Positions 42,252 through 64,000 of a stretch of DNA of 64,000 bases are shown piece by piece. A program made the position numbers and the translations under genes. A model generated the notes under the pieces. That model was not told where the DNA came from and made no database searches. It saw only the letters and a list, made by a program, of their open reading frames with translations. Source of the stretch: Candidatus Levyibacteriota bacterium (GTDB taxonomy: Bacteria; Patescibacteriota; Microgenomatia; Levybacterales; UBA12049); assembly GCA_963790825.1 (NCBI GenBank), contig CAWBPM010000002.1, positions 618,815 through 682,814 of the forward strand, written 5' to 3'. Position 1 is the first letter of the stretch. Each line of letters begins with the position of its first letter.

Positions 42252-42329
42252 TCATACAGTATAGCAAAAGTTCAAATCTGAGTTGGAGCTTTTACTGGCA
42301 AGCCTGGGTTCGAACAAAGCAGGAGGCCA

Positions 42330-42385: not shown

Positions 42386-42430
42386 CAGCTACTACTTTTT
42401 AAAATATGTTATGCTATAGAGAGTTACCCT

Positions 42431-43834
42431 ATGAAATATATTGTCTTTACTTTTGACGGATCAGGCACTCCTGTTGCTCAGCATCTGCAGATGGAAGGCC
42501 AGGATGTAGTACTGGCTCTAGTCCAGAGTATGAGTAGCCTAGCCGCTCCGGGTGATGATATCTATATGGAGGGACGAAAAGATAAGGAGGGTCGTCTTTC
42601 TGTGTTTGACGGTATTGTGAAGAAAAAATCAGCAGAAGAACTTCTGAAAGAAATGAAAACATATAAGAATCCTCAGGATTATTTCGTATTTTTTGACACG
42701 AATGGATTATATGCACTTGCGGAACAAATCAAAGACTTAGGTTTCCATGGTAATTTCCCAACTCACGAGGACTATTTATATGAAATGGATCGAGATAAAG
42801 CCAAAGAATTTGTCAAAAAATACTACTCCAAATTACATATTGCCCGGAAGAAAGAATTCGCCAAAGTCGCTGACGCGAAAAAATTCTTAGCGAATACCGA
42901 TGAGGTCTGGGTGTTAAAAGCGAACAGTGAGTCGTTAACTGCTTTTGTGCCCAGTGTTGATGATCCGATTCTAGCCTCCCATGCGGTAATTGAAGTTTTA
43001 GATAAAGACGCAGCTTCTTATGAGTCTGAAGGATTCATCCTGGAAGTACTTATCCCCTCTGTTATGGAAGTTACTCCCGAAAAAATATATTATGACGGTG
43101 AACCGGTCGCTACATGTATAGATATTGAGAACAAACCAATTGGCAGTGGAAATATTTCTGTTCAAACCGGCTGTGCTGCGGATCTTGTTTTCCCTATTGC
43201 TATGGAAGAGAGGATTAATCAGATTGCCTTTCCGCCGATTGTTGATGAACTGGCTAAAAAGCATAAAGGGTTATTTTACTGGGATGCGTCAATTTTAATT
43301 AATAAAAGAGACGGAAAAATGTATTTTGGCGAATTCTGCCCTAACAGACCGGGGTACAATGCTATCTTTACTGAATTTGCCCAGTGCGGTAGTGTGCATG
43401 AATATTTCGAAAATATAGTCCAGAAAAAAAATCCATTTACTTTAGGGACTGTCGCGTCCTCTATTAAAATATTTAATTTACACAGGGATAATGATACCCA
43501 ACAAATACTCGGCGGACTAACAGTCGATTTCGCGCCGGAGGTTGAAAAGGATATTTGGTTATGGGATGCAAAGAAAAAAGGAAAAAAACTTGTCAATACC
43601 GGTTATGGCGATATTATCGCTGTTATTACCGGATCTGGAACATCTGTTGAAGAAGCAGTCAATAGAATGTATCGAAATTTAGAAAAATTTTCTTTCCTCG
43701 ACGCGTATTATCGTCCGAAAGCGGATTTTCTGTCGCTTGGATATTCGACTTCTATTCTCAATCGCCTCAATTACGGTATGGATCGGGGATTATATCAAAT
43801 ACCATTTAATGTAAAAGTTGGAGATATCCTGTAA
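42431..43834 (+). CDS. ATP-grasp superfamily enzyme (PurD-like); start taken at internal MKYIVFTFDGSG
   Basis: N-terminal pre-ATP-grasp Rossmann-like segment MKYIVFTFDGSGTPVAQHLQMEGQDVVLA resembles the PurD N-domain. The central region is consistent with ATP-grasp. The family assignment is tentative. Confidence 0.45.
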   Translation: MKYIVFTFDGSGTPVAQHLQMEGQDVVLALVQSMSSLAAPGDDIYMEGRKDKEGRLSVFDGIVKKKSAEELLKEMKTYKNPQDYFVFFDTNGLYALAEQIKDLGFHGNFPTHEDYLYEMDRDKAKEFVKKYYSKLHIARKKEFAKVADAKKFLANTDEVWVLKANSESLTAFVPSVDDPILASHAVIEVLDKDAASYESEGFILEVLIPSVMEVTPEKIYYDGEPVATCIDIENKPIGSGNISVQTGCAADLVFPIAMEERINQIAFPPIVDELAKKHKGLFYWDASILINKRDGKMYFGEFCPNRPGYNAIFTEFAQCGSVHEYFENIVQKKNPFTLGTVASSIKIFNLHRDNDTQQILGGLTVDFAPEVEKDIWLWDAKKKGKKLVNTGYGDIIAVITGSGTSVEEAVNRMYRNLEKFSFLDAYYRPKADFLSLGYSTSILNRLNYGMDRGLYQIPFNVKVGDIL

Positions 43835-48441: not shown

Positions 48442-49515
48442 TCAAGACCTTGATTGGGCTGGGGTGATAAGTACCAGTTGAGGAGTTAATGTAGAAGCAT
48501 ACTCCAATGGTGTTTTGTAGTCAAGGGCTTGATGAGGGCGAATGCTGTTGTATTTGACTAACCATTCTGTTAAATCAACATTCGCTTCCGCTATGTCATC
48601 AAGCCCTACCTCTGAAAAATCGAGCCATTCTCTCTGCACTGTATGATTAAATTTTTCAAGACACGGGTTGTCTTTTGGGGTATGTGGACGAGAAAATATT
48701 TGTTGTATTGATAATTGTTCACAGGTATCTGAAAAGTGTTTCGCAAATTCTGATCCATTGTCTGAGTGTATGACTGACAATTTGTTCTCACTGAGGTATC
48801 GTAACCTCCTGAGAAAATCTGCGCCATTTTGTGATGAAGCTGTTGGATACACTCTTGCAAACCCAAGTTTTGTTTTATCATCCAAAGCGGTAAATATTAC
48901 TCTCCTTTGTCCATACCACCAGATAAGGATACTGTCGGTATGCCACAGTCTTCCCGGTTCCTTCATTGTGTGGATACGAATCCGTGGCTGTTTTGTCTTT
49001 CCTACCGTGTAGACTCGCTTCTTTTTCTTCTCTTGAAATAACTTGTGCTTTCGTATGACTCGTTCTATCTTCCAGGTTGTTATCTTCTGGTTATACCTGT
49101 TCTGATAAAGTACTTTCAGTTTTTGTTTACCTAGTTCCATGTTTTCTTTTCGAAGGATAATAATTTGTTTTTCTTCTTTTGCCGTTACCATCCATTCCCG
49201 TACCCTCTTGGGTCGCTTTGATTTCTCCTCTAAACAATATGCATTACTCCTGTCAAACCGTTGTACCCACCGCCTGAGACATTTGCGTGAAATCCCAAAA
49301 TGGAAAGCTGTTGTTGTTATATTCTCTTTCCCAACAGTATAATAGAATGCAATCCACTCCAATCGTAATCTCCCGTCGGAGGATATTCCTTCTTGTTTTG
49401 CCTGATAGCGATAGTAATCCCAGAAGTTCTCTTTTCCTTTTTGTATATCCCTCCATGTTTGGTACGTCCACGGATGGGCTGATACTGGCTTATGTGCTTT
49501 CGTTTTCATAGTCAC
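48442..49515 (-). CDS. IS481-like DDE transposase (HTH + rve integrase core)
   Basis: 357 aa. N-terminal HTH (FGISRKCLRRWVQRF) and DDE core with WHTDS...HSDNGSEF...RPHTPKDNPCLEKFNHTV. Confidence 0.85.
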   Translation of the reverse strand: MTMKTKAHKPVSAHPWTYQTWRDIQKGKENFWDYYRYQAKQEGISSDGRLRLEWIAFYYTVGKENITTTAFHFGISRKCLRRWVQRFDRSNAYCLEEKSKRPKRVREWMVTAKEEKQIIILRKENMELGKQKLKVLYQNRYNQKITTWKIERVIRKHKLFQEKKKKRVYTVGKTKQPRIRIHTMKEPGRLWHTDSILIWWYGQRRVIFTALDDKTKLGFARVYPTASSQNGADFLRRLRYLSENKLSVIHSDNGSEFAKHFSDTCEQLSIQQIFSRPHTPKDNPCLEKFNHTVQREWLDFSEVGLDDIAEANVDLTEWLVKYNSIRPHQALDYKTPLEYASTLTPQLVLITPAQSRS

Positions 49516-49620: not shown

Positions 49621-50616
49621 TTATACTGCTGCTACGTTTTTTCCTTCGTAGAATCCGCCGGCAACAGTCAGTTCCGCTTTAATCAGAGGATGTGGGTCAT
49701 AATTTTCCAGCAGTACATGTTCGGGTTTAATATCAGCCAAAGTTTTAACACTCGGATCGATAGTAATTGTCGGGAAAGGTTTCGGTTCACGTTTCAATTG
49801 TTCTTTTACTTGCTCAATATGATTCTCATAAATATGCACATCACCATACGAATGAATAAACTCGCCCGGTTCAAGATTTAATATTTTGGCCAGAATTACT
49901 GTCAAAAGTGCATAAGAAGCAATATTAAACGGAACACCTAAAAACAAATCGCAGCTTCTTTGATACAAAATCAGAGACAATTTTCCGTCCCGATTACTTA
50001 CCTGATACATATTGTGGCAAATCGGAAAACGGGATGCATTTTCAGAATCAGCCATCGTATAGAGATATTCCGGATTCCATGAATTGACAATAGCGTTATG
50101 AGCATTCGGATCCGCTTTCAACTCGTCTATTACCCATTGCAGCTGGTCGATGGTCCGGCCGGTCTTAGTCGGCCAGCGCCGCCACATTTCGCCGTAGATA
50201 CGCGGTAATTCTCCCCATTTGTTGGCAAATTTATCATCGGTTGCGATTTTTTCGATGAATTCTTCTTTCGTCATCACCGGTAAAACTAAATCCTCGACCA
50301 CTTTTTTATATGTTTTGTACGGATAGTCATCCCAAATATGTACATTGTTATCAACTAAATATTTTATGTTTGACCGTCCTGACATGAACCAAAATAGTTC
50401 GTACAAAACACCTTTCCAATAAACTTTTTTCGTAGTTAACAGAGGAAATCCTTGGGACAGATCGTATCTGGCTTGCTTACCGAATAAGCTGTATGTTACG
50501 ACACCTGTTCCGCGGTCGACTTGTTTTATGCCGGTATCTAAAATTTCCTGGAGTAAATTGAGGTATTGATATTCTAGATGATTTCTTTTAACTATTTTTA
50601 CCCCATTAGATTTCAT
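49621..50616 (-). CDS. thyA: thymidylate synthase (ThyA, long form with insertions)
   Basis: FPLLTTKK, LPICHNMYQ...LILYQRSCDLFLGVPFNIASYALL (catalytic Cys and dUMP-binding region), 331 aa. Confidence 0.9.
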   Translation of the reverse strand: MKSNGVKIVKRNHLEYQYLNLLQEILDTGIKQVDRGTGVVTYSLFGKQARYDLSQGFPLLTTKKVYWKGVLYELFWFMSGRSNIKYLVDNNVHIWDDYPYKTYKKVVEDLVLPVMTKEEFIEKIATDDKFANKWGELPRIYGEMWRRWPTKTGRTIDQLQWVIDELKADPNAHNAIVNSWNPEYLYTMADSENASRFPICHNMYQVSNRDGKLSLILYQRSCDLFLGVPFNIASYALLTVILAKILNLEPGEFIHSYGDVHIYENHIEQVKEQLKREPKPFPTITIDPSVKTLADIKPEHVLLENYDPHPLIKAELTVAGGFYEGKNVAAV

Positions 50617-50789: not shown

Positions 50790-50850
50790 TACGCATGCTT
50801 TCTAATTTAATTTTGAATTATGAATTTTAAATTTTGAATTTTTTATACTT
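50790..50850. repeat. TRAATTY heptamer tandem element (TAATTT TGAATTA TGAATTT TAAATTT TGAATTT)
   Basis: Lies between the thyA start and the stop of the dcd-like gene. Confidence 0.6.
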
Positions 50851-51382
50851 GCTTTTCTTTTTTCCTCGCCGTTACCCGTCCGCCTTGCCATTGCCCGCGG
50901 TACTGACTGCCTACGCCTTTTATCTCATGGAATATAACATGGACAAAGCGTGCTCCCATTTCGATCTCAACCGTAATCGGTCCTTCATTTTTTAAACCAA
51001 ACGTTAATTCTCCCTGATATCCCGGTTGAATCGGACCTGTCCTGATAAAAATCCCCGACCGGAACGTCGTCGTTCTAGGTAAAATAACTGCTGACAAATT
51101 AAGCGGCAAATTTATTTTCTCAATTGTTTTAACTAAGAAAAAATCACCCGGTTTTATTTTAATACTCTGTTTTTTCTTCGGGTCATATGTTTTAACTGTT
51201 TTTATATCTGCCGTCTGGCGATGCGTTTCACCTAAAAATGCTTTGCCAGAAATTTCATAGACTTCCCCCAAGCGTAAATCAAATCCCGCTCCTTCGGGAT
51301 TGGTAAGCTCCCGTTCCGAAAGATTTTCAACCAGTTTTTGTTTCTTAACCAATGTTAATAATTTCTTAGGTGAAAGTATCAT
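50843..51382 (-). CDS. dCTP deaminase/dUTPase-family protein (short paralog)
   Basis: GFDLRLGEVY...PIQPGYQGELTFGLKNEG (dUTPase-fold motif 3-like). Confidence 0.6.
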   Translation of the reverse strand: MILSPKKLLTLVKKQKLVENLSERELTNPEGAGFDLRLGEVYEISGKAFLGETHRQTADIKTVKTYDPKKKQSIKIKPGDFFLVKTIEKINLPLNLSAVILPRTTTFRSGIFIRTGPIQPGYQGELTFGLKNEGPITVEIEMGARFVHVIFHEIKGVGSQYRGQWQGGRVTARKKEKQV

Positions 51383-51509: not shown

Positions 51510-52517
51510 TCAGGATCTCTTTTCGCTTTCATCTGCTAATTTTACCAATTCATTATATTGCTCACCTATTTGAGTAATCGCAAAAGGACTATCTTTTCTG
51601 CTTTTCAATTGATAAATAGTGACAGGTAACGTCGTAATGAGTTCTGCAAGTTTTACTTGAGATGTTAACGTATCTTTTTTATTATCAGTATTAACTTCTG
51701 TAACGATCGGTATCCCCCCGACTTCGTCTACCTGTGAAACCCCGGCTTGCAAATCAGCCCTGTTATACGCATGGACTGCCATATCGACATTTTGTATCTG
51801 AATGCTCTGGTTAAGAAGCGCTGTTATATACTGCCCAAATTGCTGGTAATGAATTGACGGTCCTGAAATGGCAGCCAGAATTGGCGTAACCGGACGGCTG
51901 AGATGAAGAGATTTTAAAACAGCCAGAGTCTCTTTCGTAAAATAAGCAAACGTATCATAATTTTGATCCCACCAAAAGTTCGACTCATTCGGTTCATTCC
52001 CTATTTCAAGCCATTCCACGCTTTTATGCTCAGTAATCGCCAGGAGATCCAATTTTATGAATTCTTTAATTTGGGTTTCATTTTGCTTAAGTTCCGAAAC
52101 TGTCTTGGGCATTGAGTGAATAAAACGAAGGACCGCACCGTTATCGACAAATGTGTAAAAAGGAAGCTCTCCGGGATCATAACAGAAAATTACTTTTTTA
52201 TTTTCTTTATCTGCCTCGGTCAGTTCTTCTTCAACCTGAGGATTATTTTCAAAAGTACCATCTACACTGACCAGAGAAGTAGGACTGCCGATTCGCAAGG
52301 TATTAATATGCAGTTTATCTGTCCCTTCTATCATTGACTGTTCAGAAACACTAACACCTATTCGTGAGTCATAGCTTGTTGTAGTTGTTTGAGAAGCAGA
52401 AACAGTTTCGGACGGATGAGGAAAACCTGTAGAATAGAAGGTAGAAGACAAAAGAGCAACAGATCCTAATATTTTTCTTATTTGGTTCCTAGGCTTTAGT
52501 TTTTCAACCTGCGCCAT
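51510..52517 (-). CDS. secreted glycoside-hydrolase-like protein (clan GH-A-like, NEP motif)
   Basis: N-terminal signal-like segment ILGSVALLSSTFYSTG. WLEIGNEPN is a typical catalytic acid/base motif of GH5/GH-A TIM-barrel enzymes. Confidence 0.45.
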   Translation of the reverse strand: MAQVEKLKPRNQIRKILGSVALLSSTFYSTGFPHPSETVSASQTTTTSYDSRIGVSVSEQSMIEGTDKLHINTLRIGSPTSLVSVDGTFENNPQVEEELTEADKENKKVIFCYDPGELPFYTFVDNGAVLRFIHSMPKTVSELKQNETQIKEFIKLDLLAITEHKSVEWLEIGNEPNESNFWWDQNYDTFAYFTKETLAVLKSLHLSRPVTPILAAISGPSIHYQQFGQYITALLNQSIQIQNVDMAVHAYNRADLQAGVSQVDEVGGIPIVTEVNTDNKKDTLTSQVKLAELITTLPVTIYQLKSRKDSPFAITQIGEQYNELVKLADESEKRS

Positions 52518-52550: not shown

Positions 52551-52636
52551 ATAACCAATAACCAATAACCAATAACCAATAACCAATAACCAATAACCAA
52601 TAACCAATAACCAATAACCAATAACCAATAACCAAT
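52551..52636. repeat. Heptanucleotide microsatellite (ATAACCA)x12 in divergent promoter region
   Basis: Twelve perfect tandem copies at 52551-52634 plus a partial AT, lying between the start of the minus-strand GH-like gene (52517) and the start of the plus-strand Cys-rich protein gene (52679). A TTGACA lies immediately downstream at 52643-52648. Confidence 0.95.
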
Positions 52637-52678: not shown

Positions 52679-53440
52679 ATGAGGCTCTTCGCTAAATTGG
52701 TAATCTCGTTTTTTGTTTTTACGTTATTTATTTTTAATCCTCCTAAGATGTTCGCAGTTACTGCTCCCCCTATTTGTAGCGCAGTGACCGCGTTTAATCT
52801 TACCTGTTCTCTTTCGGGTACAGCTACGTTTACAGCTTCTTGGGATTTATCTGCATATGGAGTACCAGCAGCTAGTAATATTTGCAATATTTATGTTTAT
52901 GCTGGCAGCAATGCCCATACTATTAGTCATACGTGTGCTGGCAGCAATGTTAGCATTACGGTTCCTGCTGATAATTCTCCGACTGTTTCAATCTACGTAA
53001 GCAATGGAATTATTGGTGATGTATGTTATAATGCTCCTCAAGGCACCATAAATAATGCTTGTGCTCCTCCCACTGCTACACCAATCCCTGCTCCTACTAC
53101 TCCCCCTGTTAACATTTATGCAGGCTGCGAAGGCAGCGCGGCAGACAACGCGGCTGACGTCTGGAAGCTAGATTGTATTCCTGTTGTCGCAGGACAACTG
53201 GTTAATTATGCTCTCATTTTCCTAGGAATCGTCGCGGTTATATTTATTATCTATGCGGGCTACAAGTTTATTACTTCCCGCGGTGATCCGAAGCAGGTTG
53301 AAGGAGCCAGAAAAATTATTACTTACGTTCTTATCGGCATCACGATTATTTTACTTTCATTCTCTATTATAGCCTTCATTGCATATATTACGGGCGTAAC
53401 ATGTATCGATGGCTTTAGTCTACATGCATGTAACACGTAA
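52679..53440 (+). CDS. secreted Cys-rich protein with TrbC/VirB2-pilin-like C-terminal hydrophobic hairpin
   Basis: Signal peptide, then a 150-aa Cys/Thr/Ala-rich region (10 Cys) with a PTATPIPAPTTPP linker. C-terminal LVNYALIFLGIVAVIFIIYAGYKFITSRG...IITYVLIGITIILL has two TM segments with a short basic loop, as in TrbC/VirB2 pilins. Confidence 0.45.
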   Translation: MRLFAKLVISFFVFTLFIFNPPKMFAVTAPPICSAVTAFNLTCSLSGTATFTASWDLSAYGVPAASNICNIYVYAGSNAHTISHTCAGSNVSITVPADNSPTVSIYVSNGIIGDVCYNAPQGTINNACAPPTATPIPAPTTPPVNIYAGCEGSAADNAADVWKLDCIPVVAGQLVNYALIFLGIVAVIFIIYAGYKFITSRGDPKQVEGARKIITYVLIGITIILLSFSIIAFIAYITGVTCIDGFSLHACNT

Positions 53441-53469: not shown

Positions 53470-54102
53470 TTATTTCCCGTCTTTATAAATCCGTGATTCG
53501 TCGGGACCTTTTTGTCCGATATATTTTGCATTTTTCTTCTTCATGTAAGGAACATCCGCAGGGGTTGACAACTGGTCGAAAGTAAATGAACAAATCCGCA
53601 TTCCGGGGGTGAGCGCCACTGCCATTCTTCCCAAGTTACCAAGTTCCAATACCGGATGCCCATCCCACCCGGGATCGAAAATTGATGCAGTCGAATGCAC
53701 AACAATCCCGAGTCTTCCGAGTGACGATCTGCCTTCAAGTCTGCCGATCAAATCAGAACTGATTATTAACTTTTCAAGCGTTACAGCCAGGACGAAATCC
53801 CCTGGTTGCATTATAAATTGCTCCCCGTCTTTCACTACAATTTCCCGCGTAATCTCATTACTGTGTTCTTTTTTTGTCGGATCAATAAAAGGCATTTTAC
53901 TGTATTCAAATACTCTGAAATGATTACCAAGCCTTAGGTCAATTGAGCAACTCCCGAGCTGCAGCGATAAATCCGGTTTCGGCGTAATAATAATCCTCTT
54001 ACTCTTCAGCGCTTTTTTAATATCTCGGTCCGATAGAATCATGGGTAAAGTGTAACATGTACGTGGTATTTTGGGAAGGGGTAAGCTTGCCCGCATTGAC
54101 AA
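53470..54102 (-). CDS. dcd: dCTP deaminase (likely true start MILSDRDIKK at 54042)
   Basis: MILSDRDIKK...IDLRLGNHFRVF...FIMQPGDFVLA...GRSSLGRLGI..H..AS..DPGW.G, the canonical Dcd pattern. Confidence 0.8.
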   Translation of the reverse strand: MSMRASLPLPKIPRTCYTLPMILSDRDIKKALKSKRIIITPKPDLSLQLGSCSIDLRLGNHFRVFEYSKMPFIDPTKKEHSNEITREIVVKDGEQFIMQPGDFVLAVTLEKLIISSDLIGRLEGRSSLGRLGIVVHSTASIFDPGWDGHPVLELGNLGRMAVALTPGMRICSFTFDQLSTPADVPYMKKKNAKYIGQKGPDESRIYKDGK

Positions 54103-54132
54103 TACTTCGAGGGTTTACTACGCTGTTATTAC

Positions 54133-57100
54133 ATGCAATTTTCCTTGATAAAATTTTATCCAAAAAGCTTGCACGTTTTCCGTATTTTCTCTACTCGATT
54201 TCTCGGAGTTTTTATTGCTTTGCTATTATTTCAAGCTACTAGTCCGGTTCAAAAAGCTTATGCGCAATATGCTGGCAATTTATTACAAAATCCATCGTTT
54301 GATACTACTTCACCTAATTGGCCTTCTCCTTGGTATATGTCTGTTTATCCTGATGCTGCTGCTACGGTAACTCAGGATATGTCAACGTATGTTGATGGAA
54401 ATTCCTCCGCACGAGTCGATATCAATACAGCCAGTCCGACCTTTTGGCATATCCAGCTACTGCAAACCGATGTTCCAATATCTCAAGGCGTTTCTTATAC
54501 AATCACCTTTTGGGCTAAGGCAACAACAGCTCGTACTATCAACGTTGTTGATCAAATGGGACTCTATCCCTATAACTCTTATTTCAGTCAGGATATCGAT
54601 ATCACTACCTCATGGCAACAATATACAATTACATTTACTGCTCCCGTAAATGACTCGCGTTCTCTTTTTACTTTTAACATAGGACTGCAAACCGGTAGTG
54701 TTTGGTTCGATGCTACGTCATTCCACTTTACTCTGCCTGATGATTATTGTTATGGACAAGGTGTCTATTTATATACCAACATAAATTGGACTGGTGCGTG
54801 TGCTAGATTTACTGCTGATACTCCTGATTTAACCAGTAGCATAGGCAACGGCACTGCTCAATCCGTTAGACTTGTAGGTGACTACGCTGCGACATTGTAT
54901 TCGGGTACAAACTATACTGGATCATCAAGCGCAGTTACTTCCGATGTCGCTGATCTTAGTACCACTGATGTTGGTCAAAAAGCTGTTTCTTCATTACAAA
55001 TTGCCGTACCTACTCCGACTCCTACTATACTTCTTGCACCTACAGCTACTCCGAGCGGCACAACTTACTCGATTACCGGAAATGTTTATAATGATCTTAA
55101 TAAAAATGGCGCGAAAGATTTAAGTCCGACATGGCAACAACTTACCAGCACCGTTACTGTAGATTATAACGACAGAACCAGTCTGGGAATTTCTGTTATC
55201 ATGGAAGGCGCATCCGGTACAGATTCGTTTCAAGTAGATGATATTTCTTTACAATTGGACAGCGGCCCAAATCTAATCACCAACCCCGGGTGTGAGGCAG
55301 ATACAAGCGACTGGGCTGGAACGCAAGCAACTCTTTCACAAGATACGACAGATTTTCATTCGGGTAGCGCGTCTTGTAATGTTCAGCAAACTACCGGAGA
55401 TCAATTTTCAATAAGCGACCAACCGGCTACTGTAAGTAATCCTCCGATGGGACAACAATATACAGCTACTGTTTGGGTCCGTACCGATTCATTAAATAAA
55501 CCGGTTTGGCTGTCTATAACAATGTCCGGTGGAGCCAATCCTGACGTAACTACGTATAGCCCAGCATTTGCTATGAACTCTAGTGAACCGAACTACAGCG
55601 GAGGAGCTGTTATTCAGTTATCAGACGGAGAGCAAACGGTTACCGATGCGAATGGAAATTATGCTTTTAATAACGAGCCATCCGGAACATATACGGTATC
55701 GCTTGCCTCGACAAGTATTTATACCCCGACTACATCCTCTTCTCAAACAATTGATCTGACAAGTGGCGACCAAACTGTTAACTTCGGATTGTATTACACC
55801 AGCTATACTTTGGCGGGGAATGTATTCGTCGATACCAATGACGATGGAGTTCAAGACGGAAGCGAAACCGGTTTTCCCGCAGGAACTGTTACCATTGCAG
55901 GTCCTGTATCCAAACAAGTAACTACAGATTCAGCTGGAAATTATTCGATACCTAATCTTCCTACCGGTATTTATATTGTCCAATATGCATTACCGTTTGG
56001 TTATACAACATCCACGACCAATCCGGTTACGATAAGTCTGGTTGCCAATACCATAGTTAATTTCGGACTTTCTCCATATACTCCTGCAGTCCTTACCAAC
56101 TCATGTGGTGCTGCTGCTCCCGAAGCAGATATCATGCTTGTTCTTGATTCTTCCGGTTCAATGGGTGAAGGAAGCAAAATACATGATGCCATAGCAGCTG
56201 CACAAAGTTTCGTTGATACGGTTGCAAGTCAACACCCTGCAAGCCAGGTGGGATTAGTAACATATAGTACCACCGTCCATATTGTAGATCCATTAATGCA
56301 AGACCATGGTGCTAACCAAACAAAATTAGATCATGATTTGGGAACTGCTGTAGCAGACGGTACTACATGCGGTTTATGTGCTATGCAAGAAGCAGTTAAT
56401 CAGCTCGAAAGTGGACACCATGGTAACGATACGAGAGTAATTGTTTTTCTTACTGACGGAATCGAAAACTATTTGCCGGGAGGACATGATCAAGTCCCTC
56501 CGCAAACAGCTCAGGATCCGATTTTGGCTCTGGCAGATCAAGAACATAATGATCACGGAACGAGCTTCTTCACGATAGGACTGGGAACTGATGTTGACGC
56601 AAATTTCCTGCAAAAACTAGCTGACGATACCGAAGCGAAATATTACTTCACTCCTACTTCCGATCAACTAAATTCGATTTATGCCAGTATTTATTATGAA
56701 ATTACTCAGGGTGTCGGCCAAGTCAAGGGAACTGTGTATAAAGATGTTAATTTTAACCGCCGCTTAGATGCAGCTGATCTAGGACTGCCCAGTTGGATTG
56801 CCACCTTAAGCAATGGAACAACCACTTATACGCAAGTGACAGATGTATCCGGAAATTATACTTTCACCGGTATTTGTACCGGCGCATATACCTTGCAGGA
56901 GCAAGCACAACCCGGCTGGTTTCAGGACAGTCCGAGACACCCAAGCAACTATGCCATTAATGTCCTTAACAGTTCAGCCATAACCAAGAAAAACTTTGGT
57001 AATACCCAAGGATATACTGTAGCTGGTTTTGTTTTTGACGATAGAAATAAAAATCAAACTTTCGATTCCGACGAAACAGCATTTACGAGCGGACTTGATA

Positions 57101-58233
57101 TTACATTTACACCTACCAACGGCACTACTTCGACTGCCGGATCAGTGGTATATGATACCACATCCGGACAATACACTGTTCAGGGTTTATTGCCCGGATC
57201 ATACATAATTTCTTACTTAGGGCCTTTACCTGTCCACTATTTCCCTGTCTATCCGGTCGGTGCCCCTTTCCCGTCGTATGTTGTCACTGTCGGTCCCGGC
57301 TGCAGCGTTGACGGCACAACAGGAGGTAGTTGTGATCCTGCAGGTAGTATTTCAGATTTGGATTTCGCAATCAGCGATTCAACTCCCTGGATACAAATAC
57401 GAGGTTTAGACGGCAGATTCGATAATGGTTACGAAGATAAAATTCCTCCCGGTATTACGGCAGCTTGCGGACCATATGAAGCAGTTCCCCAATCTTCAAT
57501 TCCTCCGGCTACTCCCGGAATTATTTTCTCAGGTGACCAGACAAGTTTGTTTGACTCGGGATCATCATCTACTACCGGTTGGGTTGTCGGTGGGCCGACA
57601 TATCCGGAAGTATTTACCCCTAAAACTGCCGGCGTAATGAAAACTTCTTATAATTATCTTCTGAGTCTTGCTCAACAATCGAACGTACCAATTACCGATC
57701 TCTCAACCATTTGCAATCTGAGCAATTGTACTTTGCCTAACGGTCTTTCACACGGAGTTTACCAATCTAACGGTGATCTTACGTTAAATAGCTTTATATT
57801 CCAAGGAAATAGTAATTATGTCATATTGGTAGCTGGAAACTTACATGTTATGGGAAATATCCAAGTAACTTCCGGTAGTACTGCCATTTTTTCTGTTGGT
57901 AAAGATATTATTTTCGATAAAACTATCGGAGATCTTAATCCTATTTGTCCACCGACGTCTTCTCATATCGAAGGCTTATACAGTAGTGATCAGAACATCA
58001 TAATCGACGGTAATGACAATTGCGTGGTTGGTCCGGATAATATGCTAAACGTTCAAGGCGCATTGGTCGCCAATGCCGGTTCCACAGGCGGTTCGTTGCT
58101 TTTGCATAGAGATCTCTGCGGAAATAATTTTATTGGCCCGGCTTTAACTGTTACCCAGCGGCCTGATTTTATTCTAAATGCTCCTGATTTTATTAAGCAG
58201 CAAAACTATTTTTTCCAGGAAGTCGCCCCATAA
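54133..58233 (+). CDS. giant secreted surface protein: CBM4/9-like carbohydrate-binding modules + Cna-B/SdrD-type repeats + von Willebrand factor A domain + C-terminal beta-helix-like region
   Basis: Signal peptide FLGVFIALLLFQATSPVQKAYA. NLLQNPSFDTTSPNWPSPW...ITFWAKATTARTINVV is CBM4/9-like, and a second such module follows (GPNLITNPGCEADTSDWAG...VWVRTD). Repeated GNVYNDLNKNGAKD, GNVFVDTNDDGVQDGSETG and GTVYKDVNFNRRLD segments are SdrD-B/Cna-B-like. The vWA MIDAS motif is IMLVLDSSGSMGE...T...VIVFLTDG. Confidence 0.7.
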   Translation: MQFSLIKFYPKSLHVFRIFSTRFLGVFIALLLFQATSPVQKAYAQYAGNLLQNPSFDTTSPNWPSPWYMSVYPDAAATVTQDMSTYVDGNSSARVDINTASPTFWHIQLLQTDVPISQGVSYTITFWAKATTARTINVVDQMGLYPYNSYFSQDIDITTSWQQYTITFTAPVNDSRSLFTFNIGLQTGSVWFDATSFHFTLPDDYCYGQGVYLYTNINWTGACARFTADTPDLTSSIGNGTAQSVRLVGDYAATLYSGTNYTGSSSAVTSDVADLSTTDVGQKAVSSLQIAVPTPTPTILLAPTATPSGTTYSITGNVYNDLNKNGAKDLSPTWQQLTSTVTVDYNDRTSLGISVIMEGASGTDSFQVDDISLQLDSGPNLITNPGCEADTSDWAGTQATLSQDTTDFHSGSASCNVQQTTGDQFSISDQPATVSNPPMGQQYTATVWVRTDSLNKPVWLSITMSGGANPDVTTYSPAFAMNSSEPNYSGGAVIQLSDGEQTVTDANGNYAFNNEPSGTYTVSLASTSIYTPTTSSSQTIDLTSGDQTVNFGLYYTSYTLAGNVFVDTNDDGVQDGSETGFPAGTVTIAGPVSKQVTTDSAGNYSIPNLPTGIYIVQYALPFGYTTSTTNPVTISLVANTIVNFGLSPYTPAVLTNSCGAAAPEADIMLVLDSSGSMGEGSKIHDAIAAAQSFVDTVASQHPASQVGLVTYSTTVHIVDPLMQDHGANQTKLDHDLGTAVADGTTCGLCAMQEAVNQLESGHHGNDTRVIVFLTDGIENYLPGGHDQVPPQTAQDPILALADQEHNDHGTSFFTIGLGTDVDANFLQKLADDTEAKYYFTPTSDQLNSIYASIYYEITQGVGQVKGTVYKDVNFNRRLDAADLGLPSWIATLSNGTTTYTQVTDVSGNYTFTGICTGAYTLQEQAQPGWFQDSPRHPSNYAINVLNSSAITKKNFGNTQGYTVAGFVFDDRNKNQTFDSDETAFTSGLDITFTPTNGTTSTAGSVVYDTTSGQYTVQGLLPGSYIISYLGPLPVHYFPVYPVGAPFPSYVVTVGPGCSVDGTTGGSCDPAGSISDLDFAISDSTPWIQIRGLDGRFDNGYEDKIPPGITAACGPYEAVPQSSIPPATPGIIFSGDQTSLFDSGSSSTTGWVVGGPTYPEVFTPKTAGVMKTSYNYLLSLAQQSNVPITDLSTICNLSNCTLPNGLSHGVYQSNGDLTLNSFIFQGNSNYVILVAGNLHVMGNIQVTSGSTAIFSVGKDIIFDKTIGDLNPICPPTSSHIEGLYSSDQNIIIDGNDNCVVGPDNMLNVQGALVANAGSTGGSLLLHRDLCGNNFIGPALTVTQRPDFILNAPDFIKQQNYFFQEVAP

Positions 58234-58292
58234 AAAAAGCTTGCCTCTTCCTTATTGACAAGTTTGCCATAGTTTATTACGCTAATGTATAG

Positions 58293-61244
58293 ATGGAAAA
58301 TTCTACCGATCCTGTCGCGCGTATACCACGAAGTAAGGCAAGAATAGTAAGTATACTCTTCTTACTTCTCTTGGTTATTGCTATTCCGTTAACGGTTATT
58401 ACCTTGCAGCACCGTCAGGAAACCAGACAAAGGGCAAGTACTACGTCTATTCCCGCCTTCGTTCAAGAAAATGAAAATAAAATAACTTCCGGAACAACGG
58501 TCAGTACGACCTTTGCCAAACCAAACACTGCAGGTAATCTGATCGCTGTCTATGTGCTTTGGAACAACGCTGGGACAGCTTCGATAAAAGACAGTTTGGG
58601 AAATACCTACACCAGCGCAACTGGCCCTTTGAGTTGGAACAATAACACCTGGAGAGGACAGGTCTTTTACGCCAAAAATATCTTAGGTGGCTCCAACACG
58701 ATTACAGTCACCTTCTCGCAAGGTGTCACTTCTTTTGGCATTATGTATACACATGAGTATTCCGGCCTTGATCCTGCCAATCCTATTGATGTTACCCAGG
58801 GAGCAATTGGTACGTCTTCAGCTATGAGTAGCGGATTGGTAACGACAACCAATGCGAATGATCTTATCTTTGGAGCCGGAGCTTCAAGTGCAGGTATAAC
58901 CGCTGGAGAAAGTGGCTTTACTGTCAGAACAACTGGATATGGCAATATGACAGAAGACGAAGATGTGACTAATACCGGCTCGTATGCCGCAACAGCAACT
59001 CAGAATAGTGTTGCATGGATTATGCAAATGGTTGCTTTTAAAGCAGCTAGCACCACGCTTTCCCCAAGTCCAACTCTCGCCACAGGAACAGCTGGTGTTT
59101 GCAGTACAAATGCACCGGTTGACGTAGTTTTGCTTGTTGATACCTCTGGAAGTATGTCTGAGCCGGCACAATCTGGATCAACAGCAACAAAGATTACACA
59201 ACTAAAACAAGCAGCCACAAGCTTTGTTAACGGTGCTCTTGGACTAGCAAATAATAATTATGAAATAAGTCTTGTATCCTTCACAGATAAAGCAACCATA
59301 CTTTCAGATTTCACCAATAACGTCTCGACCTTAACATCCGACATAAACTCATTACAAGCAACGAACACCACCTGCACAGAATGCGGGGTAGACGCTGCTA
59401 ACCAAGAAATAACCAATCATGGCAGGAGCAATGTAAAAAAGGCTGTCATACTTCTAACCGATGGATTTGCAAACGTAATCGAAAAAACAGCCGGAAATTA
59501 CACAAGTTCAGTTGACCCTGCAAGCTGTACTGCAACTCAAAATAATGATAAAGCTTGTACGCTTGCTGAAACACCAACACTTTCATTAGTAACCACAGGA
59601 CACACTGCAAGCAATACAACATATTTTACAATTGGACTTGGCACAGCCGGAACTACAGTAAATCAAAACTTCCTCCAGCAAATTGCCGACAGCACGACAG
59701 GACAATACTATAACGATCCAACAGGAAACGATTTAACTAGTATCTATACCAATCTCCAAGAGGTCATAGGTCAAGGCGGCATAAGTGGTTTTGTCTTCAA
59801 TGATACCAATGCAAATGGCCAATACGATTCTACCGAAACGAAAGTGACGGGTAGAACTGTTACGCTCTCCTCAAGCGCGAGCGGAACCTCCACACAATCA
59901 ACCGTAACAGATGCGACAGGTGACTATTCGTTCGTTGGGCTATGTAACGGCAATTATACGATAACGGATAGCATTCCCTCAGGCAGCATTATTACCGACC
60001 CCAAGACAAATAACGGCGTATACATTGACACAATTACAAATGATCAAACAATCCCGAATCAAAACTTCGGAGAAGCAATAATTCCGACATCTACACCAAT
60101 ACCCACTCCCCCATCTGCTCCGGTAGTTACAATTAATGGTTGTATCACAGGACCTGTGAGTGGAACGAACAATTTAACCCTTTCCTGGAATGATAGTAAT
60201 GTCTCTTCAGTCAATATAGGGACAGACCCATCATATTCTACCTATTACGCTAAGAATGCTCCAGGAGTATTAAGCACAACAGCTCCCATAGGTTTTTTTG
60301 GGGGTAGCAGTAACGTCTCAGGATTACAACTCGTGCTTAGTCCTAATACCACTTACTATGCTACAGTTTGGGATGGAGTCACCAGTCAGCTAAGTAGTCA
60401 AGCTCCTTTCTCACTTTCTCTTTGCGCCACTCCAACTCCGACGGTAACATTAACACCGACACCAAAGCCGACGAATACACCCACTCCCACTGCGACTCCT
60501 GTACCGACGTCTACCCTAACACCCACACCCCGCCCGACGAATACACCTACTCCAACCCCAACTTTTACTCCTACACCTACTCCAAGACCAACCAGCACTC
60601 CGACACCTATTCCTACCGATACGCCCTTCCCAACCAGTACGCCGGTACCCCTAGCTACTACCCTTAATTTTACAGTGTTCCTCCACGGTATCGGAAACAG
60701 TGGAGATAATGCCAACCCGAATACTTTTTCTTTAAGTAATCACAGCCCGCTTCACCCGGAACGCCCAGCTACTATCGAAGTGTATGATAGTAATAATCAA
60801 CTCGTTAAAAGCACTACGGGTACACTCACGTACAGCAGTAATGCAGGAAATTTCACCGCCAATACTATTAGCCTAGGGACAGCATTTACTACCGGAGATT
60901 ACAATATTAAAATAAAAACAGATCGCTATCTGAAAAAATTAGTGCCGGGAATAGTACACATTACTGCCGGACAAAGTAATCTTGTACCAACGGTAACACT
61001 GGTTGCCGGAGATATTAACGGGGATAATAATTTAAATATCCTTGATTACAATACCTTGCTTGATTGCGGCTATGGAGCGTTTACTCCGCTTCCCATGACT
61101 GATCCGAACTCTCTTTATAACAGTGCTTCCTGTCAATCTCACCAGCCGTATGTGGCCAATGCTGATCTTAACGACGACGGAACTGTGGACTATACTGACT
61201 TCAATTTATTTGTCCGCGAGTTATCTGTACAAAATGGAGATTAA
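58293..61244 (+). CDS. membrane-anchored surface protein: lectin-like beta-sandwich + vWA + SdrD-B repeat + Pro/Thr linker + conserved beta module + C-terminal dockerin-type double EF-hand
   Basis: N-terminal TM helix [21 protein letters not shown]. vWA MIDAS motif [13 protein letters not shown]...[37 protein letters not shown] is SdrD-B-like. The (PT)n linker spans 60420-60660. The C-terminus [20 protein letters not shown]...[22 protein letters not shown] matches the dockerin calcium-binding loop pattern D.N.DG....D..L twice. Confidence 0.7.
60420..60660. repeat. Pro/Thr-linker coding repeats ([10 protein letters not shown]...)
   Basis: Degenerate tandem ACNCCNAC-type codon repeats. They generate spurious antisense ORFs at 60398-60715 and 60422-60667. 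Confidence 0.8.
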
Positions 61245-62559
61245 TAAAAAAAAAATTATTCACAAAGATGTATTCATAGGTTTGATTTTGGGACTTCTGG
61301 TTATTAGTATTCCCTTAACTGTTTTTATTTTGCAAAAATCACAGGAGAGCCGGTCTCGTGCTACTGCTGCTACGACCCTTTCTTTTATGCCCGCTTCTAC
61401 CCAGACCAGTCCGCTTCAGTTTACCGTGAATGATAGTTTTATACTTAATCCGACAATTAATCCCGGCACCAATTTAGTCACTTTGGTAAAATTGGAAATT
61501 ACCTATGATCCGTCTAAACTTGCACCGAACGGCGCGAATTCATTCGCGCCGAATACTGCAGCATTTCCGGTTATTACGCAACAGCCCATTTATTCCCCTG
61601 GGGTTATTCAAGTAATTATGGAAATCGGTAGCAACCCCACTAATGCAATTCAGACAACAACCAGCCTGGGTACGATTAGTTTTAATGCGCTTTCTCCAAC
61701 AACTTCGGGAACTCCGACACAGGTAGTTTATACAACTACTTCTGAAGTGCTTTCACTTGGCAGTAATGACCAAGCTGCAGAAAATGTGCTTTCTTCAACA
61801 ACTCCTGCTTTTATCGAAATCAATTCACCAATTCCGACTCCCACTAATACCCCTGTTCCTACATTAACTCCGACACCAACATTACTTCCGACGAATACTC
61901 CCACCCCAACACCTACCAGTACGCCGATTCCGACGGATACGCCTTTCCCGACCAGTACTCCGGTACCGTTGTCCACAGTCCTTAACTTCACTGTCTTTCT
62001 CCACGGCATCGGCAACAGCGGAGACAACGCTAACCCGAATACTTTTTCTTTAAGTAATCACAATCCGCTACATCCGGAGCGTAATCTCTCAGTTGAGATT
62101 TATGATAAGACAAATCAGTTTGTTTCTTCGTCTTCAGGAACTCTCGTGTTTGACGCGAATGCAGGAAACTTTAGCGCAAGTATTGATATGGGGACTGCTT
62201 TTTTGACAGGTGATTATAATATTTACATCAAATCAGATAAATATCTCAAGAAACTTATTCCCGGAATTCAAAAAATAACAGCCGGACAAACAAATACTGC
62301 AGTAGTAACAACGCTTATTGCCGGAGATATCAATGACGATAATACGCTTGATATTCTTGATTATAATGCCCTTTTAGATTGCGGCTATGGAGAAATAACC
62401 TCGCTTCCCATGACAGATCCGAATTCCGTATTTAATAGCGCGATGTGCCAAGCACACCAACCGTATACTATTAATACAGATTTGAATGATGACGGGATTA
62501 TTGATGCAACCGACTTTAATCTTTTTATTCGTGAACTATCTGTACAAAATGGAGATTAA
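61234..62559 (+). CDS. membrane-anchored cohesin-like + Pro/Thr linker + conserved beta module + dockerin protein (paralog 2)
   Basis: Start taken at [12 protein letters not shown] (ATG 61234-61236, overlapping the stop of the upstream gene). TM helix [21 protein letters not shown]. The N-terminal domain [39 protein letters not shown]...[10 protein letters not shown] resembles cohesin strands, including the YDP..L motif. The C-terminal 190 aa are about 85% DNA-identical to 60640-61244, including the dockerin repeats [20 protein letters not shown] and [22 protein letters not shown]. Confidence 0.65.
61835..61975. repeat. Pro/Thr-linker coding repeats in paralog 2
   Basis: [45 protein letters not shown]; spurious antisense ORF at 61728-62027. 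Confidence 0.8.
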
Positions 62560-62575
62560 TAAAAAACACTAAACT

Positions 62576-64000
62576 ATGAGAGGCTTTTTAAGTTCTAAAA
62601 GAAATGCATCTTTGGCCTTACTGACGCTTCTACTTCTTATCAGTTTGCCGGTAACCCTAATCGTCTTGCAAAAACCTCAGGAAGATAGAAGTCATGCGCA
62701 GGCTTCAACCTTGCTTTCGTTTAGTCCCGCTTCAACACAGACTTCTCCTACGCAAGTAAGTCTTAATGATTCGGTCAGTTTACAGCCGATGCTAGACCCG
62801 GGAAATAATTTAGTCTCGATAGTAAAATTAGAAATTGATTATGATCCTACTAAGCTTGCGCCTGATGGTACAAATGCTTTTACCCCAAACACGACATCTT
62901 TCCCCACTGTTCTCGAAGGGCCGATATATGACTCAGGTAAAATGCAGGTCCTCATATCTGTTGGTTCAGACCCGACCAAAGCCATAAGTACGCCAACTTC
63001 TCTCGGAACAATAAAACTAAAAGCAATTTCTCCAACAAATAATGCTACAACAGAAGTAACATATAATACAAATGTCGTCCAAATACTTTCTGTCGCCTCG
63101 TCCGACCAGGCAGCTGAGAATGTTTTTTCCTCAGCCACTCCTGCTTATATTTCAATAAACTCTTCTTCAACGCCAACGATAACAACAATGCCAACCTCAA
63201 CCAATGTAAAAATAATTTCTCCGGCGCTGAATGATACTATATGCATGGGTAAGCCCTATACTATTACCTGGCAAGGAACGACAGACATACAAGGCATCAT
63301 GTTTCAAATAGTCTCCCCGCAACCAAACAGTTTTGCTGTACCCATATCATCGGTTTTAGCCATAAATGGTCAGCCTGTTTCCGGAAAAAGCGGGTATATC
63401 CAAGACTCATACATCTGGACCGTCGGCCAGTTGCTCAGTAATCAGTTTGGTGCACTCGCCCCAGGTTTCGGCTATAAGCTTGAGGCGTTGGCATATGTCG
63501 GTAACTCTGATACAGTTTTTGATAGCGATTTATTTAGTATCTCTAATAATAGCAATTGCAGCAACACACCAACTCTTGTTCCAACAAGTACCCCTATACC
63601 TAGTACTACTTTAAGCCTAGCTATATTTCTACACGGCGTTGGCTTAAGTGGAGATAATGTAAACGAAAACAATTCAGATCTTAGCAATAAAATGCCCCTG
63701 CACCCTGAACGTAACCTAATAGTAGAGTTCACAAATGACCAAAACAAGCTCTTGGCGACAGCTAATACGACAATTACCTATAATAGTGATCTTGGCGATT
63801 TTATCGGTACTGTTCCAGTACCCAACGTTGTTGGGAACGGATCATACAACATAACGGTAAAAACCGACAAGTATCTCAGAAAACTTGTTTCGGGTATTCA
63901 AAATCTAAGGTTATATCAAATGAATACTTTACCCAAAATTACACTCACTGCCGGAGATGTTAATGGCGATAATAAGCTAGATCTGCTTGACTATAATATA
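62576..64000 (+). CDS. membrane-anchored cohesin-like + beta module + dockerin protein (paralog 3), 3' end beyond window
   Basis: Not in the ORF track because there is no stop in the window. I translated it without stops from ATG 62576 to 63999: MRGFLSSKRNASLALLTLLLLISLPVTLIVLQKPQ...[52 protein letters not shown]... It is collinear with paralog 2. Later segments are LAIFLHGVGLSGDNVNENNSDLSNKMPLHPERN, ...ITVKTDKYLRKLVSGIQ, and ...TAGDVNGDNKLDLLDYNI, the first dockerin loop. Confidence 0.65.
   Translation, partial: MRGFLSSKRNASLALLTLLLLISLPVTLIVLQKPQEDRSHAQASTLLSFSPASTQTSPTQVSLNDSVSLQPMLDPGNNLVSIVKLEIDYDPTKLAPDGTNAFTPNTTSFPTVLEGPIYDSGKMQVLISVGSDPTKAISTPTSLGTIKLKAISPTNNATTEVTYNTNVVQILSVASSDQAAENVFSSATPAYISINSSSTPTITTMPTSTNVKIISPALNDTICMGKPYTITWQGTTDIQGIMFQIVSPQPNSFAVPISSVLAINGQPVSGKSGYIQDSYIWTVGQLLSNQFGALAPGFGYKLEALAYVGNSDTVFDSDLFSISNNSNCSNTPTLVPTSTPIPSTTLSLAIFLHGVGLSGDNVNENNSDLSNKMPLHPERNLIVEFTNDQNKLLATANTTITYNSDLGDFIGTVPVPNVVGNGSYNITVKTDKYLRKLVSGIQNLRLYQMNTLPKITLTAGDVNGDNKLDLLDYNI

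Follow-up and report, generated by a model that had tools for sequence, protein, structure and literature searches.

The subject of this study is a stretch of 64,000 nucleotides (nt) of Candidatus Levyibacteriota bacterium (GenBank assembly GCA_963790825.1, contig CAWBPM010000002.1, forward-strand positions 618,815 to 682,814), referred to below as the window, and within it an open reading frame at 54133-58233, designated ORF1. ORF1 encodes a large modular protein, probably an adhesin, and is followed by three further genes of the same orientation, ORF2, ORF3 and ORF4. Domains of ORF1 were assigned by Pfam searches with the whole protein and with nine separate segments. The following features were recognised in ORF1 (window positions, strand, amino acid (aa) residues; scores from profile hidden Markov models, HMMs):

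54133-58233, plus strand: ORF1, modular protein of 1366 aa with an intact reading frame, predicted to be exported
54133-54264, plus strand: Sec-type signal peptide (aa 1-44), read by inspection, with predicted cleavage between AYA and QY
54274-54684, plus strand: CBM_4_9 module 1 (aa 48-184); PF02018, 59.3 bits (cutoff 25.9), HMM positions 1-132 of 136
54763-55002, plus strand: borderline beta/gamma-crystallin-like (Greek-key) module (aa ~211-290); PF00030, 27.8 bits (cutoff 25) as an isolated segment
55063-55116, plus strand: SdrD_B repeat 1, N-terminal piece (aa 311-328), ending in the calcium loop DLNKNGAKD
55117-55572, plus strand: putative circularly permuted CBM_4_9-like module within SdrD_B repeat 1, C-terminal half (aa 329-376) followed by N-terminal half (aa 380-474)
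55573-55797, plus strand: SdrD_B repeat 1, C-terminal piece (aa 481-555)
55807-56082, plus strand: SdrD_B repeat 2 (aa 559-650); PF17210, 48.7 bits
56128-56682, plus strand: vWA domain with a complete metal ion-dependent adhesion site, MIDAS (aa 666-850); PF00092, 71.8-76.7 bits, and VWA_2, 58-62 bits
56731-57252, plus strand: SdrD_B repeats 3 and 4 (aa 867-956 and 963-1040); PF17210, 36.4 and 26.1 bits
57343-58230, plus strand: C-terminal domain (CTD), a predicted beta-solenoid (aa 1071-1366) with the fold of IBP-1/DUF3494 ice-binding proteins (IBPs) and ComZ, conserved Cys pairs and a terminal E-V-A-P

The reading frame of ORF1 is uninterrupted over its 1366 aa. An identical protein (P0171) is present in a second public assembly, which makes a frameshift or a one-off assembly error unlikely; frameshifts had been named as a possible objection in an earlier reading of the same DNA, made by a model from the letters and ORF translations (the sequence-only reading). 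On the 751-kb NCBI/ENA contig the gene was called from an alternative TTG located 12 codons downstream, giving a protein of 1354 aa (P0001). By inspection, the N-terminus of ORF1 displays a basic n-region, the hydrophobic core FLGVFIALLLF and then the cleavage site AYA-Q. The protein is strongly acidic (D 7.1%, K+R 3.1%), and such acidity combined with scarcity of Lys and Arg is expected of a calcium-binding extracellular protein.

Searches with the whole protein assigned 94.4 bits to SdrD_B in four stretches, 71.8 bits to VWA, and 58.7 bits to CBM_4_9, the latter with a second, weaker stretch. The resulting order is signal peptide, CBM_4_9, beta/gamma-crystallin-like module, SdrD_B repeat 1 with a nested permuted CBM_4_9, SdrD_B repeat 2, vWA with MIDAS, SdrD_B repeats 3 and 4, a disulphide-loop linker, and the CTD beta-solenoid of 300 aa. 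Thus, the carbohydrate-binding modules (CBMs), the SdrD_B-type repeats and the vWA domain with its MIDAS proposed by the sequence-only reading were all recovered by HMM scans.

CBM_4_9 module 1 shares 32-39% identity with the CBMs of two other proteins, P0002 and P0003. The crystallin-like segment, which was absent from the list of the sequence-only reading, is a borderline assignment: it also matches Inhibitor_I36 (23.7 bits, cutoff 21.1) and reaches only 18.8 bits of PF00030 in the context of the whole protein.

Two CBM4/9-like modules had been expected, and both are real, but the second one departs from a plain module. Read in the native order (aa 329-480), it scores 24.2 bits, below the PF02018 cutoff of 25.9, and covers HMM positions 2-91 only. 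Comparison by BLAST with P0002, the nearest relative that bears CBMs, aligned aa 380-474 of ORF1 to the N-terminal two thirds of the first CBM of P0002 (aa 21-116; 46% identity, E 4e-21), while the preceding aa 329-376 aligned to the C-terminal third of the same CBM (aa 118-165). When the two parts were re-joined in silico in the un-permuted order (378-480 + 329-377), the score rose to 31.4 bits in a single stretch over HMM positions 2-131 of 136. Since the re-joined order aligns in one stretch above the cutoff, the second CBM of ORF1 is, as judged from its sequence, a circular permutant of the CBM_4_9 fold and, as written, a non-standard member of the family.

This permuted module is embedded in another domain. 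The segments YSITGNVYNDLNKNGAKD before and SSEPNYSGGAVIQL after the second CBM belong to a single SdrD_B repeat. Once the insert is excised (aa 311-328 spliced to aa 481-560), repeat 1 scores 36.9 bits over HMM positions 2-81, as compared to 27.3 bits over positions 40-81 for the C-terminal piece alone. By these alignments, the permuted CBM is nested inside the calcium-binding loop of SdrD_B repeat 1. No DNA repeat marking a recent duplication was found at the nested CBM. Both junctions coincide exactly with complementary HMM boundaries, evidence against misassembly.

The calcium-loop motifs of the SdrD_B repeats (D-x-N-x-D/N-G-x-x-D) are visible in the ORF1 sequence. Taken individually, repeats 2 and 3 exceed the cutoff of 29.7 bits, repeat 4 (26.1 bits) is below it, and repeat 1 passes only in its insert-free form. 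Repeats 3 and 4 are retained in P0038 and five other representatives of the family described below. All MIDAS residues are present in the vWA domain, namely D672-x-S674-x-S676, T744/745 and D775, and form a predicted metal site. The same domain contains a CxxC pair (C746, C749).

No Pfam family was assigned to aa 1071-1366, the sole trace being DUF7305 at E 0.14-0.16. Nevertheless, this CTD is the best-conserved part of ORF1, sharing 40% identity with the C-terminus of P0002 and 29% with that of P0015. An exhaustive search with a CTD profile over 1.84 billion cluster representatives retrieved 2,713 matches at E<=1e-3 and 717 at E<=1e-30. Counted as clusters at 50% identity, the family therefore has at least 2,700 members. 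Word-index searches with the full protein and with the CTD profile gave 16 and 20 matches, respectively, and missed full-core homologues that were found by the exhaustive profile search. The domain ends no more than two residues from the protein C-terminus in 151 of 154 representatives. A Glu occupies position -4 in 138 of 144 representatives and Pro is the last residue in 135 of 144 (E-x-x-P end). Two Cys pairs are nearly invariant across the family, and the mean column identity is 42-47%.

The CTD was modelled with AlphaFold2. With an alignment of 13 sequences only the core was confident; with 48 sequences the entire domain was modelled at a predicted local distance difference test (pLDDT) of 91.6 and a pTM of 0.87. 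The top structural matches of this model were all DUF3494 ice-binding proteins, with Foldseek TM-scores against the DUF3494/IBP-1-fold structure of only 0.38 (query-normalised) and 0.47 (target-normalised). The model thus assigns the CTD to the IBP-1 fold, a class of right-handed triangular beta-solenoids with a flanking alpha-helix. The beta-helix-like C-terminus of the sequence-only reading is borne out and can be described more exactly as a CTD family with the predicted fold of ice-binding proteins.

At the sequence level, the relationship to these proteins is not detectable. The Pfam model Ice_binding (DUF3494) gave no match at E<=1 with ORF1 or any of 13 CTDs, a search of PDB sequences with the CTD profile gave just E 0.68 to one DUF3494 chain, and the CTD yielded no Pfam match to PF20597 (pAdhesive_15). 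No significant sequence similarity links the CTD to DUF3494 IBPs, including ice-binding protein_1 of Shewanella frigidimarina (PDB 6bg8, chain described as Ig domain (group 2)). In comparison with DUF3494 IBPs, the CTD is ~80 residues longer, has conserved Cys pairs and a terminal E-x-x-P, and is strictly C-terminal. The CTD is, by the model and the profile searches, a defined and very large sequence family with the IBP-1 fold and without a Pfam model. Literature searches found no paper describing it.

Proteins of the CTD family commonly begin with a hydrophobic N-terminal signal sequence (111 of 133 members). A census of partner domains in 62 full-length members revealed SdrD_B in 36 and vWA in 6-7; further partners were CBM96, ricin-type lectin, LamG, F5/8-type C and Ig-like Big_3_5 domains. 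As judged from these sequences, variable binding modules stand upstream of a constant CTD across the family. One close member is annotated as Candidatus Levybacteria. This single name, the 751-kb contig of the window and the contigs of 0.72-0.86 Mb that bear related loci make a small-genome, Patescibacteria-type host likely. A scan of genome contigs with full ORF1 retrieved only unrelated SdrD_B-repeat proteins of other phyla. P0023, considered as a stand-alone CTD protein of 317 aa, belongs to a CTD-encoding cluster (L020:5464-10954) between rplA and rplJ on a 1.14-Mb contig. It was rejected because the frames upstream are Gly-rich and a 315-aa Big_3_5 ORF overlaps its start, so that P0023 probably represents the end of a longer, frameshifted gene.

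The core SdrD_B-vWA-SdrD_B-SdrD_B-CTD of ORF1 is common to six representatives of clusters built at 50% identity (P0100, P0038, P0054, P0150, P0075 and P0159), which share 32-38% identity with ORF1 over ~860 residues (aa ~500-1366). Alignments thus mark the C-terminal two thirds of ORF1 as a conserved architecture. The N-terminal 500 residues of ORF1 were found in none of the 150 best CTD-family members; this lectin part is related to the CBMs of P0002, a different protein of the CTD family. P0002 is encoded in a complete 1.6-Mb genome (L017; GCA_965230895.1, OZ246394.1, 6994-13390), where the parts of ORF1 are divided between two adjacent genes. The first gene encodes a 981-aa SdrD_B/vWA protein and has its stop exactly where the CTD starts in ORF1. 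The next gene, coding for P0002, combines a signal peptide, two CBMs, DUF2341, LamG and a CTD. This split suggests either that a cassette was inserted into an ancestral gene or that a fusion occurred in the lineage of the window. Given the split and the shared core, ORF1 appears to be a mosaic in which P0002-type lectin modules are joined to a conserved CTD protein of the vWA type.

Downstream of ORF1, three genes of the same direction were identified:

58293-61244, plus strand: ORF2, 983 aa; transmembrane (TM) segment, unassigned domain (aa 45-260), vWA, SdrD_B, Pro/Thr linker, beta-sandwich and dockerin-like block
59121-59750, 59781-60029 and 60636-61241, plus strand: vWA, SdrD_B and beta-sandwich/dockerin-like block of ORF2, respectively, assigned by Pfam
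61234-62559, plus strand: ORF3, 441 aa from the ATG at 61234; TM segment, cohesin-like module, Pro/Thr linker, beta-sandwich and dockerin-like block
~61426-61773 and 61954-62556, plus strand: cohesin-like module (PF00963, 24.4 bits) and beta-sandwich/dockerin-like block (Dockerin_1, 24.3 bits) of ORF3
62576-64000, plus strand: ORF4, at least 475 aa, running past the end of the window; paralogous to ORF3, it has a TM segment and a cohesin-like module, then an additional middle region and the first part of the dockerin-like block seen in ORF3

The four genes are tightly spaced, with gaps of 59, -11 and 16 nt, and are probably co-transcribed. The G+C content over 54001-62000 is 0.42-0.44, as compared to 0.34-0.41 in most of the window, and is accompanied by a positive AT skew. 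The raised G+C content of the cluster may be due to the Thr/Gly/Pro-rich composition of the proteins or to a different origin.

The vWA and SdrD_B domains of ORF2 scored 60.5 and 54.4 bits, respectively, in agreement with the sequence-only reading, which had assigned both to the first dockerin protein, and the vWA positions it had given for ORF1 and ORF2 (56100-56700 and 59100-59650) agree with 56128-56682 and 59121-59750. The comparison of the two vWA domains that it had suggested revealed paralogy: aa 626-956 of ORF1 and aa 234-593 of ORF2 are homologous as one contiguous vWA+SdrD_B block (31% identity, E 2e-36). The C-terminal 202 aa of ORF3 are 73% identical to ORF2, and ORF4, compared in six-frame translation, is 58% identical to ORF3 in the cohesin-like domain and 48% identical in the C-terminal block. 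The internal domain shuffling supposed earlier is real, with cassettes being shared between the ORFs.

The cohesin and dockerin assignments lie close to the Pfam cutoffs. Dockerin_1 (PF00404, cutoff 22.9) scored a marginal 26.5 bits, in two stretches, in the C-terminal block of ORF2 and 24.3 bits in ORF3, with both calcium segments present in each. The cohesin model (PF00963, cutoff 24.1) gave 24.4 bits with ORF3, barely over the cutoff, and 19.1 bits with ORF4, below it. Like non-cellulosomal cohesin/dockerin pairs, the dockerin-like ends have duplicated calcium-loop segments, and, like anchoring scaffoldins, ORF3 and ORF4 combine cohesin-like modules carrying the motif LE(I/L)xYDP with an N-terminal TM segment. 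They differ from known systems in that no enzymes are attached, cohesin and dockerin occur in one polypeptide (ORF3 and ORF4), and a Cys-containing insert of ~35 residues separates the two dockerin segments, with Pfam scores barely over the cutoffs.

Immediately after the N-terminal TM segment, ORF2, ORF3 and ORF4 share the motif IPLTV.. LQ(H/K)xQExRxRA(S/T) (58293-58420, 61234-61370 and 62576-62700), with 53% identity between the ORF2 and ORF3 TM regions over 36 aa. The shared region could act as a signal anchor or be processed in an unusual way.

Upstream of ORF1, two genes were annotated:

52679-53440, plus strand: Cys-rich protein with a C-terminal T4SS_pilin (VirB2/TrbC-like) domain (aa 167-231); PF18895, 30.0 bits (cutoff 26.6)
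53470-54102, minus strand: dcd (dCTP-deaminase), between the T4SS_pilin-like gene and ORF1

The pilin-like character of the Cys-rich neighbour was upheld by its membership in the T4SS_pilin family; its score with the NCBIfam model ICE_MMCAP2_0565 was 29.7 bits, below the cutoff of 40. What did not hold was its place in one locus with ORF1. Because dcd intervenes on the opposite strand, the T4SS_pilin-like gene is not in the transcription unit of ORF1, and, instead of a single locus of ~12.5 kb starting at the pilin gene, the coherent unit is ORF1-ORF4, from 54133 to beyond 64000.

Several other elements were recognised in the window. The perfect tandem repeat of the heptanucleotide ATAACCA (12.3 copies, 52551-52636) is unique in the window and lies in the ~160-nt gap between the divergent genes 51510-52517 (minus strand) and 52679-53440 (plus strand, T4SS_pilin-like); from its sequence and position it is a candidate site of slipped-strand phase variation in a promoter region. 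An rve-type integrase/transposase gene (48442-49515, minus strand; rve_3 61.6 bits, rve 46.2 bits, HTH domains) is located ~4.6 kb upstream of the adhesin cluster and adjoins the thymidylate synthase gene. The minus-strand genes at 49621-50616, 50843-51382 and 53470-54102 include two dCTP-deaminase-like paralogues (DCD 93 and 145 bits) less than 3 kb apart, beside thymidylate synthase. The scanned remainder of the window comprises housekeeping genes and this one rve-type integrase. The ORFs at 28562-30034 (490 aa) and 51510-52517 (335 aa) had no Pfam match, and that at 42209-43834 (541 aa) had a sub-threshold match to GARS_C alone (16.8 bits, cutoff 34.8). No tRNA, tmRNA or Rfam families were detected in the 64-kb window, and scans of the window for promoters and terminators gave nothing above chance.

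The genomic neighbourhood of CTD genes was surveyed in 63 other metagenomic loci encoding CTD proteins. Eight of these loci carry, within a few kb, a gene for a TM-anchored protein of ~200 aa homologous to the cohesin-like module of ORF3 and ORF4. One of these homologues scores 39.2 bits with the Pfam Cohesin model, which strengthens the cohesin assignment in ORF3 and ORF4. Where the contig goes on, the TM-cohesin gene is followed by genes for one or two proteins with the same dockerin-like end. This recurring proximity of CTD proteins to TM-anchored cohesin/dockerin proteins in small-genome bacteria is new, though only as a variant; papers on cohesin/dockerin systems in Patescibacteria were not found in literature searches.

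Conserved neighbours over the 63 loci belong mainly to housekeeping synteny blocks (SHMT, MurB, S41 peptidase, SSB, HtrA and YchF), and no sortase-like or secretion-system partner emerged from this analysis. Levybacteria-like loci (L024, L044, L045, L051, L052, L060, L069 and L074) display convergent genes for MurB, an S41 PDZ peptidase, SSB, an HtrA-type PDZ protease and a YchF-like protein downstream of the CTD gene. The MurB, S41 and HtrA neighbours were confirmed by Pfam, and SSB and YchF were identified by eye. This arrangement is probably plain synteny. Still, free C-termini are what PDZ proteases bind, and the E-x-x-P end is conserved in the CTD family; under the doubtful proposal of a display or sorting module discussed below, this tail might be recognised by a partner whose gene is close by in some genomes, such as a protease with a PDZ domain or a receptor of cohesin type. 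At P0015 (L021), four small upstream genes had looked promising for a pilus tip by their size, but they encode bitopic membrane proteins without prepilin signals, and this candidate was rejected.

Anchoring signals, a search for which had been recommended by the sequence-only reading, were not found in ORF1. The regular expression LPx[TSA][GAS] had no match in ORF1 or ORF2, and no LPXTG motif is present in the window. In six-frame translation of the window, the sortase motif TLxTC occurs only once, in a 119-aa frame overlapping another gene; part of the window ORFs were scanned against Pfam. The C-terminus of ORF1 ends in ...FFQEVAP without a TM segment, and no prepilin motif was found in the window.

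The architecture of ORF1 resembles those of two classes of known adhesins. Sdr-type MSCRAMMs (microbial surface components recognizing adhesive matrix molecules) such as SdrC/SdrD likewise have a signal peptide, ligand-binding modules and a tandem, calcium-binding SdrD_B stalk, and the sortase-pilus tip adhesins of the RrgA and GBS104 class also place vWA/MIDAS among prealbumin- or CnaB-like domains. Unlike Sdr-type MSCRAMMs, however, ORF1 lacks LPXTG, the SD-repeat region and the DEv-IgG A-domain. Its lectin modules (CBM_4_9, crystallin-like) replace the fibrinogen-binding type of A region, and it ends in the beta-solenoid of 300 aa in place of a wall anchor. Accordingly, the NCBIfam MSCRAMM models (NF000535, NF012181) gave ORF1 scores below their cutoffs, namely 49.2 bits against 2500 (MSCRAMM_SdrD) and 40.5 bits against 1700.

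The relatives of the CTD fold are themselves involved in adhesion or surface binding. These include Ig-stalk ice adhesins, ComZ at the pilus tip, and choice-of-anchor-A (CAA) proteins (PMC6561018; bioRxiv 10.1101/2023.03.06.531300; PMC11645318). The adhesive domains of the latter have the same fold and do not bind ice, and bacterial CAA-domain proteins are surface proteins held by one of three conserved anchor types (bioRxiv 10.1101/2023.03.06.531300). ORF1 differs from these CAA/pAdhesive_15 (PF20597) proteins in that the CTD itself is the C-terminus. In ComZ of Thermus thermophilus (PDB 6qvi) the solenoid forms an insertion in a pilin domain, which is missing from ORF1.

Taken together, ORF1 is probably a Sec-exported, highly acidic, calcium-dependent modular adhesin of the fibrillar type. 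The domain order which the sequence-only reading had taken for that of an adhesin was confirmed for every domain, and the function is read from this content: a signal peptide, lectin and MIDAS binding modules, a calcium-stabilised stalk and a terminal module. By analogy with the same families elsewhere, the CBM and crystallin modules would bind glycans, the MIDAS would bind an acidic side chain of a protein ligand via its metal, and the SdrD_B repeats would serve as rigid, calcium-stabilised spacers. The weakest step of this scheme is a guess about the CTD, which may form a common base that holds ORF1 on the envelope of the producer or on a conserved partner. It would then take the position of the wall-spanning region and LPXTG in Gram-positive MSCRAMMs. 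We consider the common base the most likely role since the domain is constant and terminal, carries a free C-terminal motif and stands beneath variable lectin and vWA passengers. The products of ORF2-ORF4 appear to be membrane-anchored, and their cohesin-like and dockerin-like modules could assemble together on the same surface.

Several observations weigh against this interpretation. ORF1 has no LPXTG, C-terminal TM segment, cohesin or dockerin, and no signal tested explains its retention on the cell; for the same reason, any physical link between ORF1 and the neighbouring proteins is hypothetical. An anchor role of the CTD is based solely on position and conservation, and ligand binding by the ORF1 modules is predicted from related families. 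Taken singly, two of the four SdrD_B repeats fall short of the Pfam cutoff, as do the second CBM when left permuted and the crystallin module when the whole protein is scanned. The adjacency of CTD genes to cohesin/dockerin genes is found in a minority of loci (8/63, a figure that stands without a baseline gene density) and is mostly convergent. Finally, the structural relatives of the CTD (IBPs, ComZ and CAA domains) serve for binding and not for anchoring, which speaks for the protein being oriented the other way round.

With the orientation reversed, the CTD would be a distal, flat-faced adhesive tip, and ORF1 would either be released or stay on the cell through its N-terminal part or other proteins. 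A flat adhesive face would fit the fold equally well. However, the N-terminus of ORF1 resembles a signal peptide of the cleavable type and not an anchor. Ligand specificity seems to lie in the ends formed by the variable lectin and vWA modules, while the CTD is too conserved, at the column identities given above, for a diversifying host-facing tip, and its free C-terminal E-x-x-P suggests a conserved partner. We therefore regard the reversed orientation as possible but rather unlikely. The broader proposal that the CTD is a previously undescribed module for surface display or sorting, widespread in metagenomes, probably centred in bacteria of the candidate phyla radiation (CPR) and replacing tethering by sortase and LPXTG, with ORF1 carrying in addition a natural graft of a permuted CBM, is in its entirety doubtful.

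The presence of CBM_4_9 in ORF1 and of cohesin-like and dockerin-like modules in ORF2-ORF4 would also fit a cellulosome-like apparatus for capturing polysaccharides as nutrients, in which the CBMs bind the substrate and cohesin-dockerin pairs build the complex. This is improbable, as the scans of ORF1-ORF4 revealed no domain of a glycoside hydrolase, lyase or esterase, and vWA/MIDAS and SdrD_B are modules of adhesins; cohesins and dockerins also occur outside cellulosomes. Even less credit can be given to a pilus-associated tip adhesin similar to ComZ or to PilY1, which combines vWA with a conserved docking domain at its C-terminus; such an adhesin would use its CTD to attach to a type IV pilus or to the T4SS-pilin-like neighbour. 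The window has no prepilin motif, pilus-assembly genes are absent from its scanned ORFs, and the pilin-like gene is cut off from ORF1 by dcd on the opposite strand. Moreover, members of the CTD family bear Sec signal peptides and not pilin N-termini, and the C-terminal domain of ORF1 is modelled as a solenoid and not a propeller, whereas that of PilY1 is a beta-propeller. Ice binding or ice adhesion by ORF1 is suggested by the fact that all top structural matches of the CTD are DUF3494 ice-binding proteins, but is highly improbable given the absence of a match to the DUF3494 Pfam model and the best E of 0.68 in the profile search of PDB sequences. In addition, the fold is widespread in organisms unconnected with ice: DUF3494 proteins occur in many bacteria of non-freezing habitats (PMC11645318) and ComZ comes from a thermophile (PMC6561018).

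In the preferred reading of ORF1 as a calcium-dependent fibrillar adhesin, the modules all fall into known classes and are put together as in fibrillar adhesins described before, so that current understanding is not overturned. Further features that are new at the level of a variant are the naturally permuted CBM nested in a stalk repeat, and the large CTD family without a Pfam model, with an IBP fold and a conserved terminal motif, which was undescribed as far as literature searches showed. The nested CBM provides a clean natural case of domain insertion combined with circular permutation, which is relevant to protein evolution and engineering. CPR bacteria, or Patescibacteria, are thought to live attached to host cells, and, to our knowledge, very few of their attachment proteins have been recognised. 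ORF1 is an intact candidate for such a protein, with modules accessible to testing: two lectin-type CBMs, a crystallin-like module and a MIDAS site. If the CTD is a generic surface-anchoring or adhesive module of CPR bacteria, searching for it would be a useful way to identify the surface proteomes of these bacteria.

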